From: an archaeon
GTDB taxonomy: Archaea; Undinarchaeota; Undinarchaeia; Undinarchaeales; Naiadarchaeaceae
Length of the DNA: 26,655 bases
Direction of reading: 5' to 3'
Assembly: GCA_037442905.1 (NCBI GenBank)
Contig: JBBIPJ010000001.1
Location: forward strand, 1 to 26,655
The notes beneath the pieces are model-generated. The model had not been told where the DNA came from, searched no databases, and saw only the letters and a list, made by a program, of their open reading frames with translations. Positions 6,127 through 22,984 of the stretch are shown here, piece by piece. Numbering within the stretch: position 1 is the stretch's first letter; each line of letters begins with the position of its first letter. The position numbers and the translations under genes are program-made.

Positions 6127-6966
6127 ATGAAAGCAGGTGAATCGCTGAGAGAAGGATTTAGACTTTATTCTGATAATCCAATTCTGATTCTCCCCTATTT
6201 TTTGTTTGGGGTGTTTTCCTTATTTTTGTACAATTTTTCAATCAACTTTCTGCGAGAAAGTTTTTCAATATTCAAAATAACGAGCCCGTTTCAAATTTTA
6301 TTATTCCAGAAAGAGTTTGCCAGTGCATTAAGCGCGATTATTTTAAGAAATGTTTTCTTTTTTATCCTAGTTGCGATAATTTACGCCCTCGTGGACTCTT
6401 TTGTCAAGGCTTATACAATCGGTTTGTCAGAAAAAATCTCAAGGAGCGGTTCTGCAAGGCTGAAAGACGGCATAGCCGCAACTTCAAGAACACTGCAAAT
6501 ATTCGGCAAAAACATAATTTTAATCTTGCTTTTGCTTTTTGGCATTGGGTTGCTGCTTTTGACAACAGCAATTCTGCTTGCGCAGTTTGCACTGCTCGCT
6601 TTTATTCCTGCTACAATAATTTACACTTTCATTGTTTATTCAGTTTCTTTCTTCGCTAGTCAATCAATTGTTGTCGAGAAAAAAGGCCCGTGGGGAGGGC
6701 TTGTTTCAAGCTATACTTTTATTAAAAGAAACATGGAGGATGTTGCAAAATTAATTTTGTTTATAATTTTTGTTTATGTTGCTTTTCATGTGATAAAATT
6801 GGCAAGTTTGAGATTGTTTGGGCATTTTTTTACAGGCGCAACAATGCGATTAATCTCAATTGCAGAAAATCTTTTGCTCGGCTATATTATAATGCGCCCT
6901 TATTTTGTGATTCTTAAAACACTTTATTTTGTAAAAAACATGCCTAAAAATAATTTAAAGCGATGA
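6127..6966 (+). CDS. Hypothetical multi-pass membrane protein
   Basis: 279 aa with about 6 hydrophobic segments and a repeated 'SL/GL..S/GF.....N' pattern (ESLREGFRLYSDN; GGLVSSYTFIKRN). Confidence 0.7.
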   Translation: MKAGESLREGFRLYSDNPILILPYFLFGVFSLFLYNFSINFLRESFSIFKITSPFQILLFQKEFASALSAIILRNVFFFILVAIIYALVDSFVKAYTIGLSEKISRSGSARLKDGIAATSRTLQIFGKNIILILLLLFGIGLLLLTTAILLAQFALLAFIPATIIYTFIVYSVSFFASQSIVVEKKGPWGGLVSSYTFIKRNMEDVAKLILFIIFVYVAFHVIKLASLRLFGHFFTGATMRLISIAENLLLGYIIMRPYFVILKTLYFVKNMPKNNLKR

Positions 6967-6969
6967 GCA

Positions 6970-7034
6970 ATGCTCTACGCTTTGCTTCGAGCATCTCTCG
7001 CTTCGCTCGAGATGGGCAGTGGGCTCACAGCCCA
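6970..7034. repeat. Cluster of REP-like hairpins
   Basis: ATGCTC/GAGCAT (6970-6994), CATCTC-TCGCTTCGCTC-GAGATG (6992-7014), TGGGCT-CAC-AGCCCA (7020-7034). Confidence 0.7.
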
Positions 7035-7073
7035 AAGCCAAAACTTATTAATTACTTCAAAGAACCATCTAAT

Positions 7074-7133
7074 GCGATGATGTCCTCATTTGTCTCGAGC
7101 TTTTGCGATGAGATGAGATGGGCGGACTGAGCA
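7074..7133 (+). ncRNA. Candidate C/D-box guide sRNA (predicted target 16S rRNA C1402, E. coli numbering)
   Basis: C-like box (GCGATGA 7074-7080 or ATGATGT 7077-7083), D'-like TCGA 7095-7098, C'-like GATGA motifs 7107-7116, D box CTGA 7127-7130. TATA-like TTATTAAT at 7045-7052 and a T-run after 7135. Guide GATGGGCGGA is complementary to the conserved 16S sequence CCGCCCGUC. Confidence 0.6.
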
Positions 7134-7155
7134 ACTTTTCTGCGGAATTTTTGAA

Positions 7156-7218
7156 AGCTTGCGGCTAGCAGCTTGTAGCTTGCAGCCATATTACTGCGAC
7201 CGCTAGCTGAAAGCTAAT
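7156..7218. repeat. Degenerate 7-bp periodic array
   Basis: In-phase units agcttgc ggctagc agcttgt agcttgc agccata ttactgc gaccgct agctgaa agctaat. Confidence 0.65.
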
Positions 7219-7891
7219 CATTCGGTCGCGGCGCATATTCAGAGTCAAAATTTCCATAAGTCAAAAGTTTTACTTCCTTTTCCTTTACGAATTTCCTGAC
7301 AAATTTATCCAGATTTTTTATATCCGGCGCGCCGTAATAAATTTCTTTCCTGTCATTTTCCGGAAAATGGCTAAGGGAGCTCTCGTACAAAATCTTTCCA
7401 AGTCCGCGGCTGCGCAAATTTTTCGCAATCCAGATTATTCTTAAGCTCAGCTTGCGCTCTTTTTCTCCTTTAACGCGGATGCGGACATAGCAGGCATATC
7501 CGGTTAATTTTTCTTTGTACAAAAGAAGGAACATATGATGTTCTAAATGCGGTTCAAATAAAGGAATGTCAAATCTATATGTTGGCTCGGAATAATTCTG
7601 GTCAAACATTACAGCGTAGGCAATGTTTTCAGCAGCCTGCCTTTCTTTATCAGAGGAATCATTTGTTACAAGTGCAATTTTTATCCCATTTTGCTCATCA
7701 TTATAAATCAAATGCGCAAATTTTGTATCACAAATTTTCTGATGGCGATCGCGCAGCTTAAAATCTTTAAAATTTTTGAAACATTTGTCACAGGCAAAAT
7801 ATAGAATAGGAGAATCTGCTATTTCCTCTGAATCAGAATTAAACATTCCGCGGGTTTTTCCTTTAAGTTCTTTTGGAGTAAATAAGGCCAT
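7214..7891 (-). CDS. C2HC zinc finger + acetyltransferase (GNAT-fold) protein
   Basis: CDKC-x12-H-x3-C (aa 34-54) and acetyl-CoA-binding motif A, IIWIAKNLRSRGLGKILYE. Confidence 0.75.
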   Translation of the reverse strand: MALFTPKELKGKTRGMFNSDSEEIADSPILYFACDKCFKNFKDFKLRDRHQKICDTKFAHLIYNDEQNGIKIALVTNDSSDKERQAAENIAYAVMFDQNYSEPTYRFDIPLFEPHLEHHMFLLLYKEKLTGYACYVRIRVKGEKERKLSLRIIWIAKNLRSRGLGKILYESSLSHFPENDRKEIYYGAPDIKNLDKFVRKFVKEKEVKLLTYGNFDSEYAPRPND

Positions 7892-20638: not shown

Positions 20639-20696
20639 CACAATGTGAAGGTTTGTTAGCTAACCAATTGGATAGCAATGCAGCCTTCACATTGTG
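20639..20696. repeat. 58-bp palindromic element, third copy
   Basis: CACAATGTGAAGG...CCTTCACATTGTG; 47/58 identical to 15205-15262. Confidence 0.85.
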
Positions 20697-20726
20697 ATTA
20701 TACCTCGCTTAAGCGGAGGTCAGCTG

Positions 20727-21773
20727 ATGAAAGCCCATCTAGCTATTTGTCCCATAGGCGTTTTTGTCTGTGATGACACTGGAAAATTAATAGACAAGGA
20801 ACTTTTTGAAAGGAATAGTGAGCATGCTGCGCGCAGGATTTTGCAATTGCGAGATGGAAAAATCATTCCTGAATTAAAAGTTTTATATGAACGGATTAGA
20901 AAAAAATATGATGAAATTACCCTAGAGCATGAAAATAATTTTGGTTTAAGTATTGAAACTTCAATTCCAAATTTATGCGGAAAAGTTTTGCGCGCGCAAA
21001 TTAAGGATTTAGCTGCAGAATTTGGATTTCATCCGATTGAACATTTTGTTTATAATTTGGGAATTGCTTTAACAGAAGAAACCCTGCAGGTTGAACTTTC
21101 AAAGCCTGACAAAAGAATTATTCAAGTGATTGGTGCGCTTGAGGAGCTGGATAAGAATACAAATGTTCTTTCAGAGAGGTTAAGAGAGTGGTATCTAATT
21201 TTTCACCCAGAATTAATTAGTCAGATTGAGAAACATGAAACTTTTGCGCGCCTGATTGCAAAGGGAAAAGTGGATAAAAAAGATTCAATCGGCGCAAGTT
21301 TTAATGAAACCGATTTAAAAACCTTAAGATTTTTTGCAGAAAACATTTCTGACTCTTTTTCATTGCGCAGTGTTTTGGAAAATTATCTGGATAATTTAAT
21401 GAAAGAGCATTTTCCAAATTTGCGCACAGTTGCAACTCCGCTGATAGGAGCAAAATTAATTGCAATTGCAGGCGATTCAACAAGATTGGCAAGAATGCCC
21501 TCTTCTACAATTCAAGTTTTAGGAGCTGAAAAATCTTTGTTCAGGCATTTGAAAACAGGCTCAAAGCCGCCGAAGTATGGAGTTATATTAAAACACACAT
21601 TTTTGCAGAGCGCGCCCCAAAGGTTGCGCGGAAAAGTTGCGCGCGCGCTTGCGGCAAAAATTTCGCTTGCAATTAAAACAGATTTGTATTCAAAAGAATT
21701 TGTTGGGGATAAATTGAGAAAGGATTTAGAAAGTAAAATTGCAAAAATAAAGGGTGGTGGGAAGAAAAAATGA
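20727..21773 (+). CDS. nop5: C/D box RNP protein Nop5 (Nop56/58)
   Basis: LSERLREWY, PNLRTV...IGAKLIAIAG, STIQVLGAEKSLFRHL...PPKYGVI, RGKVARALAAKISLA; GGAGGT RBS at 20715-20720. Confidence 0.95.
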   Translation: MKAHLAICPIGVFVCDDTGKLIDKELFERNSEHAARRILQLRDGKIIPELKVLYERIRKKYDEITLEHENNFGLSIETSIPNLCGKVLRAQIKDLAAEFGFHPIEHFVYNLGIALTEETLQVELSKPDKRIIQVIGALEELDKNTNVLSERLREWYLIFHPELISQIEKHETFARLIAKGKVDKKDSIGASFNETDLKTLRFFAENISDSFSLRSVLENYLDNLMKEHFPNLRTVATPLIGAKLIAIAGDSTRLARMPSSTIQVLGAEKSLFRHLKTGSKPPKYGVILKHTFLQSAPQRLRGKVARALAAKISLAIKTDLYSKEFVGDKLRKDLESKIAKIKGGGKKK

Positions 21774-22324
21774 AAATGAAGAAGATTTTAAAAGTAAAAA
21801 GTAAAAAAGATATCGAAAAGCAAATCAAAGAATTAAGAAATCGAGGTAAAAAACTTGCTGAAATTTCAAAAATAACTGGAAAAAGTATTCATTATGTTTA
21901 TTCGAGACTAAATCCCAAATATAGACTGGGGCGATTAGAAATACATTACATTAATGAAAAGGTTATCCCCACACTTAAAAGAATGGGGTTTAAAGATATT
22001 TATATCCCAGATGATCCAAGACAAAATAGAAAAAAGAAGTTTTGGGCTGATATTGTTGCAAAAAAAGGTAAGACATTTCATATTTTTGAAGTCAAACATA
22101 GGCCACAGAGATCTTTGTTTTGTTTTGCGGTAGGGGAAATTATCCTAAATAGATGCGTGAATAATAAGATAAATGGTAAGAAAAAATACCATATTGTTCT
22201 ACCCCATCCCACCTCTTATATTGATGTTTTCACCAAAAAAGTAGAATGGGCGAGTATGAAAAATTTCAAAGAAGAAGCAAAATTCCTAAAAAAGAATTAT
22301 GGCGTAGATGTTATTTTCATTTGA
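21770..22324 (+). CDS. HTH + PD-(D/E)xK nuclease-like protein inserted between nop5 and flpA
   Basis: N-terminal HTH (GKKLAEISKITGKSIHYVYSRL), then E...LKRMGF...ADIVAKKGKTFHIFEVK. The alternative start is 21776. Confidence 0.7.
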   Translation: MKMKKILKVKSKKDIEKQIKELRNRGKKLAEISKITGKSIHYVYSRLNPKYRLGRLEIHYINEKVIPTLKRMGFKDIYIPDDPRQNRKKKFWADIVAKKGKTFHIFEVKHRPQRSLFCFAVGEIILNRCVNNKINGKKKYHIVLPHPTSYIDVFTKKVEWASMKNFKEEAKFLKKNYGVDVIFI

Positions 22325-22327
22325 AAA

Positions 22328-22984
22328 ATGAAGAACTTTTCTAATATTCAGCAATTCGGCCGCGATTTCGGGACTTTGAATCTTAATCCCGGGAAGAAGG
22401 TTTATGGAGAGCGTTTAGTCCAGCATTCTGGAAAAGAGTATAGAATCTGGGACATTTACAGGAGCAAAATTGCTGCTGCGATTTATCAGGGATTGCAGAA
22501 TTTTCCATTTAAGGAAAATACAAAAATTCTTTATCTCGGCGCAGGAAATGGGACAACAGTTTCGCATTTCTCGGATGTCTGCACTAATGGGCAGATTTTC
22601 TCTGTTGAATTCTCAGCGCGCGCAATGACAGATTTATTTTTGCTTTCAAAACAGCGTGAAAATATTATTCCTTTATTAGCAGATGCAAACAAGCCACAGG
22701 ATTATCTTTCTATTGTGCCGGAAGTGGATGTAATTTATCAGGATATTGCGCAGAGAGATCAGGTTGATATTTTAAATAAAAATGTGGATATTTTTTTGAA
22801 AGACAAAGGATATATTTTTTTAATGGTAAAGGCGCGCTCAATTGATGTTGCAATGGAGCCGAAAAATGTTTTCAAGGTTGTGTATGCGCAGTTGCAGAAC
22901 AAATACAAAATTCTTGAGCAGCTACGGCTGGATCCATATGAAAAGGACCATATGTGCATTGTGGCACAAAAACTTAATAAATAA
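22328..22984 (+). CDS. flpA: Fibrillarin-like rRNA/tRNA 2'-O-methyltransferase
   Basis: VYGERL...YRIWDIYRSKIAA, LYLGAGNGTTVSHFSD, SVEFS, DVIYQDIAQRDQ, LDPYEKDH. Confidence 0.96.
   Translation: MKNFSNIQQFGRDFGTLNLNPGKKVYGERLVQHSGKEYRIWDIYRSKIAAAIYQGLQNFPFKENTKILYLGAGNGTTVSHFSDVCTNGQIFSVEFSARAMTDLFLLSKQRENIIPLLADANKPQDYLSIVPEVDVIYQDIAQRDQVDILNKNVDIFLKDKGYIFLMVKARSIDVAMEPKNVFKVVYAQLQNKYKILEQLRLDPYEKDHMCIVAQKLNK

Follow-up and report, generated by a model that had tools for sequence, protein, structure and literature searches.

A candidate stand-alone box C/D sRNA gene in Naiadarchaeum (Undinarchaeota), predicted to guide 2'-O-methylation of 16S rRNA C1402

Does a short gap between two convergent genes of an undinarchaeal genome hold the gene for a box C/D guide sRNA and, if so, which nucleotide would that RNA select for methylation? 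The gap lies in the window, by which we mean the whole stretch of 26,655 nucleotides that was analysed (positions 1-26,655 of contig JBBIPJ010000001.1, assembly GCA_037442905.1). The assembly of the source genome (labelled G000) comprises 783 kb in 138 contigs, with 37% GC and 78.6% completeness, and the sequencing runs that match the locus are DNA runs of a subsurface metagenome. We consider it highly probable that positions 7073-7133 of the forward strand are an independently transcribed archaeal box C/D sRNA gene of ~60 nt and a predicted guide for Cm1402. Most likely, the sRNA directs ribose methylation of the decoding-site nucleotide C1402 of 16S rRNA.

Anatomy of the candidate gene and its match to 16S rRNA

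The unit is present in a single copy in G000. It sits between convergent genes at 6127-6966 (forward strand, DUF7847) and 7214-7891 (reverse strand, GNAT). No frame of at least 80 codons covers it, making the locus an ORF-free gap, and ARAGORN found no tRNA in the window. Its parts, all on the forward strand, are as follows.

7045-7052, forward: TATA-like promoter box TTATTAAT; its start lies 28 nt before that of the terminal stem
7073-7075, forward: 5' half of the terminal stem, UGC, pairing with GCA at 7131-7133 in kink-turn register
7076, forward: G, the spacer nucleotide of the kink-turn loop, a single nucleotide before box C
7077-7083, forward: box C, AUGAUGU (6/7 against RUGAUGA, with GA at positions 3-4 kept; same in G001, a relative of the same genus)
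7084-7094, forward: D' guide region CCUCAUUUGUC, 11 nt, for which no target was found in the searches described below
7095-7098, forward: box D', UCGA, degenerate (2/4 against CUGA, GA kept; same in G001)
7099-7109, forward: D'-C' loop, from the alignment of G000 with G001
7105-7111, forward: alternative box C', GCGAUGA, overlapping the main C' and arising from a 5-nt GAUGA repeat that is absent in G001
7110-7116, forward: box C', GAGAUGA (6/7 against RUGAUGA)
7117-7126, forward: D guide (DNA GATGGGCGGA, RNA GAUGGGCGGA), 10 nt, of which positions 2-10 pair with 16S rRNA
7127-7130, forward: box D, CUGA (CTGA), perfect consensus
7131-7133, forward: 3' half of the terminal stem, GCA, forming a 3-bp stem with UGC
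7136-7139, forward: T-run TTTT (UUUU), probably an archaeal terminator signal and also seen after the unit in most relatives

The defining elements of an archaeal C/D sRNA are present: a box C and a box D, both with the GA dinucleotides of the kink-turn, and internal D' and C' boxes for a kink-loop, the D' box being degenerate yet retaining its GA. The spacers (11 nt from C to D', 10 nt from C' to D) are at the short end of the range of 10-12 nt that has been described for archaeal C/D guides (PMC7994747). Because G000 has one extra GAUGA unit relative to G001, three C' registers are possible, with spacers to box D of 10 nt (GAGAUGA), 12 nt (AUGAGAU, a poor box) and 15 nt (GCGAUGA). Tran et al., in 2005, reportedly found 12 nt to be the experimentally preferred spacing, and the copy with 10 nt may therefore work with lower efficiency.

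The unit is also predicted to fold on itself, the D' region pairing with the C'/D-guide region (MFE -20 kcal/mol, z = -2.1), and this fold would compete with target binding. Relatives have weaker versions of the same pairing, and we therefore read the fold as a by-product of the guide sequences. The sequence-only reading had placed a TATA-like box, C, D' (TCGA), C' and D boxes and a T-run at this locus and had warned of a nested hairpin. All of these are where it put them, the hairpin included, with boxes C and C' better assigned to AUGAUGU at 7077-7083 and GAGAUGA at 7110-7116.

The same reading had proposed a 9-bp pairing, with one G.U, between the D guide and 16S rRNA, and the organism's own 16S rRNA pairs in just this way. 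The partial 16S gene of G000 (the 3' part, on the minus strand of contig C22) reads ACACCGCCCGUCAAAU, and positions 2-10 of the D guide form 9 contiguous base pairs with C1399-C1407, eight of them Watson-Crick and one a G.U pair at G1405. G7122, the fifth guide nucleotide upstream of box D, is opposite C1402, as the N+5 rule for the modified nucleotide would have it. On the minus strand of C22, C1402 is at position 7714. The E. coli numbering of CCGCCCGUC used here is one that we take to be established. The same numbering has been applied to archaea (PMC5389701). Methylation of the site is known elsewhere: Cm1402 was measured in Nanoarchaeum equitans, where its guide was not found (Seistrup et al. 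2017; PMC5389701), and a 2024 review lists the site as methylated in plants, human, yeast, an alga, archaea (Cm1369) and bacteria (PMC11542601). A 9-bp match is expected by chance at an estimated rate of roughly 0.4 per guide against about 4.5 kb of rRNA and is thus not rare alone, so that the weight of the argument is carried by conservation and not by the match.

Conservation of the unit and variation of its partner guide

Conservation of the full unit is the main evidence for a gene. When the intergenic region was compared with relatives by BLAST, only the unit (7072-7132) matched in G001 (87% identity, E = 3e-15), which is evidently Ca. Naiadarchaeum limnaeum (record DVAB01000023.1). Beyond the unit, the matches were to dispersed repeats only, and the flanks did not align with those of the G001 locus. 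The neighbouring genes differ between the two genomes: in G001 the unit comes directly after the DUF7847 homologue, overlaps its stop codon and is followed by a 203-aa ORF that is absent in G000. Both genomes keep box C, box D, the entire D guide, the terminal stem and the distance to the TATA-like box. The stem of G001 is UGC/GCG, a change from U-A to U.G that preserves pairing. Its TATA-like box (TTTATATT) is 28 nt upstream, as in G000, in a region that aligns with the G000 upstream region, and its register is GCGAUGA-GAUGGGCGGA-CUGA, with a spacer of 10 nt.

The conservation extends to the phylum. Ten of the 17 Undinarchaeota genomes contain a single copy of the pattern of guide plus D box, GAYGGGCGGNCTGA, and none contains its reversed control; all ten loci have full C/D architecture. 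A sequence profile built from these ten loci (profile A1/R1, with G000 included) gave one strong match (E <= 8e-8) in 15 of the 17 genomes; G000 itself, which is a training sequence, scored 46 bits (E = 2.8e-12). We define the family by a single-copy match to this profile in which a D guide of the form xxGAYGGGCGR adjoins the D box, and the G000 locus fits this definition. Five of the matched genomes are outside the training set. Three of the five (G004, G007 and G010) have CAGA as box D, a fourth (G003) has GGGCGA in place of GGGCGG, and the fifth (G014) reads GUGACGGGCGAA. Among the 17 genomes, the C1402 guide was not found in G002 (84% complete) and G013; the sole profile match in G013 is an sRNA with a 23S guide and a different D guide. 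The three loci with a CAGA box D (L082 in G007, L085 in G004 and L087 in G010) belong to one genus, and this copy is otherwise canonical and conserved.

The 13 members outside Naiadarchaeum have 12-nt spacers on both sides and a D' box of CUGA or CCGA, and in 12 of them the C' box is within one mismatch of RUGAUGA (that of G011 is degenerate). Terminal stems of 3-6 bp with compensatory changes are found in about 11-12 of the 13 (UGUCG/CGGCA, UGUCG/CGACA, GUC/GAC, AGUGUA/UACACU and UGCC/GGCA are the covarying versions). Adjoining box D is a nucleotide that need not pair, and it varies between A, U and G; the pairing positions are nearly fixed. In most of the 15 members the stem is preceded by a TATA-like 8-mer that starts 25-30 nt before it, several of these being weak matches, which supports the earlier claim that the gene stands alone. 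Boxes and guide have turned out to be conserved in relatives, where the sequence-only reading would have been vulnerable. Of all family members, the Naiadarchaeum copy departs most from the canonical form, with UCGA as D' box, 11 nt between C and D' and 10 nt between C' and D.

The D' guide is a different matter. The best candidates for CCUCAUUUGUC in rRNA are duplexes of 8-9 bp with the N+5 position at the helix edge (e.g., 23S GAAUAAUGAGGA). The 11 tRNAs returned by ARAGORN contain no match of 8 bp or more, the rRNA operon spacers offered at best a single 9-bp duplex that includes two G.U pairs, which is at chance level, and the genome as a whole gave 211 matches, against 130-337 for shuffled guides. 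These searches of rRNA, tRNA and genome agree with the sequence-only reading, which could assign no target to this guide. Relatives carry CCGACAUCGAU at the D' guide position, aimed at A2503 of 23S rRNA: nine other members have a D' guide, CCGACAUCGA(U/G), that forms 10 Watson-Crick base pairs with 23S UUCGAUGUCGG and puts A2503 at N+5. In G015 and G016 the D' guide pairs over 10-11 bp with 16S CUUAAAGGAAUU instead. Compared by eye, the Naiadarchaeum D' guide looks like a decayed A2503 guide, and this is probably its origin. Between G000 and G001 the D' half hardly differs, in keeping with a structural role that has been retained.

The idea that loss of the guide was tied to a change of 23S rRNA at A2503 is not supported at the level of the genus, since the 23S rRNA of G000 keeps the A (its own 23S fragment, in the first 30 nt of contig C53, minus strand, is CCGAUGUCGG). 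A relocated A2503 guide was sought in G000, and no copy with box context was found. The 23S rRNA of G001 (C34:2631-2643, locus L069) reads UUCGCUGUCGG, with C at the near-universal A2503, which could be real or an assembly error; eight other Undinarchaeota and G000 have A at 2503.

The ancestral partner of the C1402 guide appears to be a D' guide against the 23S peptidyl-transferase-centre strand CGAUGUCGG. Loci with the dual guide are L028-L030, L033-L035, L082, L085, L087 and L088 in Undinarchaeota and L052-L061 in another, unrelated archaeal family. The N+5 position is A2503 in Undinarchaeota and appears shifted by one nucleotide, to U2504, in L052-L061. This combination suggests an old dual guide linking the decoding centre with the peptidyl-transferase centre. 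A second canonical C/D sRNA, L090 of the distant Undinarchaeota genome G013 (C52:5740-5790), combines an A2503 guide, UCCGACAUCGAA, with a different D guide, GUCUUAUCGAUG, so the A2503 and C1402 guides are not always linked.

Protein machinery, known guides and alternative explanations

L7Ae, Nop5 and fibrillarin are all encoded in G000. L7Ae is on contig C79. The genes for the other two, nop5 and flpA, had been recognized in the window from its letters, and Pfam confirms both.

20694-21773, forward: nop5, C/D RNP scaffold protein (Pfam Nop, 9.4e-51; Nop5_56-rel_N_Arc)
22328-22984, forward: fibrillarin gene (flpA), 2'-O-methyltransferase (Pfam Fibrillarin, 5.5e-82)

These two genes are usually adjacent; here a 184-aa ORF with no Pfam match (21770-22324) lies between them.

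The way in which archaeal C/D RNPs work is established, and it indicates how the RNA might act. L7Ae would bind the terminal C/D kink-turn and the internal C'/D' kink-loop, and a Nop5 dimer would bridge both L7Ae sites and position fibrillarin. The 10-nt D guide would base-pair with nascent 16S rRNA at C1399-C1407, and fibrillarin would methylate the 2'-OH opposite the fifth guide position, that is, of C1402, part of the P site of the decoding centre. The D' half would probably be only the second protein-binding site, its guide having lost the ancestral 23S target. In bacteria the same 2'-O-methylation of the same universally conserved nucleotide is made by RsmI, which together with RsmH produces m4Cm1402 (PMC11542601). 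RsmI and RsmH are stand-alone, protein-only enzymes, unlike a guide RNP. The sequence-only reading had raised the question of rsmI, and no RsmI homologue was found in the G000 assembly (78.6% complete); for RsmH there was only a sub-threshold match, to a generic methyltransferase. Both absences are provisional because the assembly is incomplete.

Guides for C1402 have been published from other archaea, and the gene in the window is an ordinary member of a known RNA class. IHOsR11 of Ignicoccus hospitalis, MKAsR114 of Methanopyrus kandleri and Sac-sR122 of Sulfolobus acidocaldarius are archaeal box C/D sRNAs detected by RNA-seq (Dennis et al. 2015; PMC4644070, Additional file 1), and Iho sR11 has been named as a possible Cm1402 guide in Ignicoccus (Seistrup et al. 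2017; PMC5389701). Like the RNA of the window, all three have the guide core GAUGGGCGG one nucleotide before a D-type box, which puts C1402 at N+5. In these three, however, the C1402 guide is in the D' position (before CUGA, CCGA or UUGA), whereas it is the D guide in the window; their spacers are 12 nt rather than 10 nt; and the partner guides differ. The partner guide of MKAsR114 (AUCCUUUAAGUG) is similar to the D' guide found in G015 and G016 and does not resemble the one in the window. A literature search found no paper linking Undinarchaeota with C/D sRNAs.

The GAYGGGCGGNCTGA pattern is also found more widely. In 401 archaeal genomes it gave about 92 matches in 80 genomes, against about 22 for the reversed control, and of 30 loci inspected 25 had C/D architecture and 5 were in apparent coding sequence. 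One of these loci, L036, has the same D guide and D box (...UUGAUGGGCGGA CUGA) and scores 45.8 bits with the Rfam model sR2 (RF01139), above the gathering threshold of 42 bits. Neither the window nor the genome has any match to that model; a target is shared with sR2 via L036, and family membership of the window's RNA is not demonstrable. Against all of Rfam, the window has no family at gathering threshold, its best match (sR11, 15.5 bits, E = 2.3) being at chance level, and the snoPyro_CD and sR2 models found no match in the G000 genome.

Eukaryotic snoRNPs, which use Nop56/Nop58 and Snu13, are comparable to the RNA of the window by target position. The guides for the C1402 equivalent are presumably snR70 in yeast and SNORD43 (U43) in human. 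The homologous site is Cm1639 of yeast 18S rRNA, Cm1703 in human and Cm1645 in Arabidopsis, the last having been assigned to a C/D snoRNP with guide AtU43 (PMC11542601). Eukaryotic C'/D' boxes are described as poorly conserved (PMC8413462).

The main reading has its weaknesses: the duplex is of 9 bp with one G.U, the D' box is degenerate and the extra GAUGA blurs the C' register. The strongest competing idea, which we nonetheless consider improbable, is that the locus is a decaying relic, derived from a true C/D sRNA and nonfunctional in Naiadarchaeum. Its boxes and spacers are not of the 12/12, CUGA/CCGA form that the other 13 members share, its D' guide is without a target, the segment between C' and D has undergone repeat slippage between G000 and G001, and the self-fold competes. 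Yet decay would not be expected to spare box C, box D, the D guide, the stem (where the A-to-G change keeps pairing) and the TATA distance while repeats invaded the surroundings and these were rearranged. A guide length of 10-12 nt is, moreover, within the described archaeal range (PMC7994747), and the three RNP proteins have been retained. It is even less likely, to the point of being a very slim prospect, that the unit is a kink-turn element or L7Ae-binding element whose main role is to chaperone rRNA folding or to regulate the upstream DUF7847 gene from its 3' UTR, without C1402 methylation. The overlap of the G001 unit with the stop codon of the upstream ORF would suit such a regulator, L7Ae binding to mRNA kink-turns has been proposed (PMC5539422), and chaperone roles have been proposed for sRNAs (PMC5389701). 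However, the neighbouring gene is not conserved in the family and the guide and its N+5 register are, about 105 nt with the unit's own TATA-like box separate ORF and unit in G000, and fibrillarin has been retained.

That the locus is no RNA gene at all, only a chance arrangement of box-like motifs or part of a 55-codon ORF (6963-7130), is hardly credible. Some genome scans do look as this explanation would have it. A loose scan for four boxes gave 3 matches in the genome and 1-3 in shuffled sequence, which is not significant; the other two matches (C127:942-995 and C31:1314-1365) were rejected, as they are inside long ORFs. A scan for half-sRNAs, which required a box resembling C or C', another resembling D and a match of 9 bp to rRNA, gave 380 matches against 379 and 377 with reversed or sense rRNA, and was abandoned, since counts equal to the controls have no discriminating power. 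When a terminal stem in kink-turn register was added to the four boxes, in contrast, this locus was the only match in 783 kb, with none in five shuffles. An ATG-started frame of 55 aa does span the region, but we rejected it as a gene: it has no Pfam match and is not conserved, most of it being in sequence that is absent from G001. A chance origin is already contradicted by the conservation of the locus in other phyla and in 15 of the 17 Undinarchaeota genomes, and by stems that covary. We thus favor a C/D sRNA gene that guides Cm1402.

Local history and implications

The sRNA gene appears to have kept its promoter through a local rearrangement. A stretch of ~30 nt that in G001 holds the ORF end and the TATA-like box has two counterparts in G000, one at about 6935-6961 and one at about 7033-7063, with an inserted repeat between them; through this duplication, the ORF kept an end and the sRNA kept a promoter. 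The roughly 105 nt between ORF and unit in G000 thus include a dispersed repeat as well as the TATA-like box of the unit. Short dispersed repeats flank the gene at 6971-6994 (extending toward 7015) and 7146-7186; they are present on several other G000 contigs and, in many copies, in G002.

Three insertions, each of roughly 60-105 nt, are found in the 3' half of the G000 16S gene (C22:7609-8515, reverse strand; locus L001) and have no counterpart in the 16S rRNA of G005 and G006; two of the three begin with the same motif of ~45 nt (GGCUUUUUCUUU..AAAAGAAAAACCCUGGAAAAAGAAA). The 23S gene (C22:14-2917, reverse strand), about 4.7 kb from the 16S gene, matches its model in pieces with extra sequence between them. 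The extra sequence in both may be rRNA introns or expansion elements. A multi-copy element with UUUGAAAUUUGUGAAGUUUGUCCAGGUUUUGAGUUUUGGG, preceded by variable GT-rich sequence, is found on contigs C9, C97, C99, C104, C117, C125, C136 and C138, often near contig ends, and probably breaks the assembly.

The sRNA could conceivably be the only C/D guide left in a reduced Naiadarchaeum genome, and effectively a single-guide RNA because the ancestral 23S A2503 guide has decayed; we regard this as rather unlikely. If true, L7Ae, Nop5 and fibrillarin would all be kept for the sake of Cm1402, a single modification that is universally conserved, and the particle would be a natural minimal C/D RNP and a natural test of how a 10-nt spacer and a degenerate D' box still support methylation.

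Knowledge of how C/D RNPs work is unchanged by this finding, and its interest is modest and lies in the degenerate details. It adds an unannotated, well-supported RNA gene to the genomes of Undinarchaeota. It also extends the evidence for C1402 ribose methylation in all three domains, with RsmI in bacteria and C/D guides in the other two. Even DPANN genomes of about 0.8-1 Mb, in which small repeats are reshuffling the DNA around it, have kept the guide. In 15 genomes, the family combines a guide that stays fixed with a partner guide that changes, and it includes variants with a CAGA D box and a 10-nt spacer; it is a compact natural data set on guide evolution.
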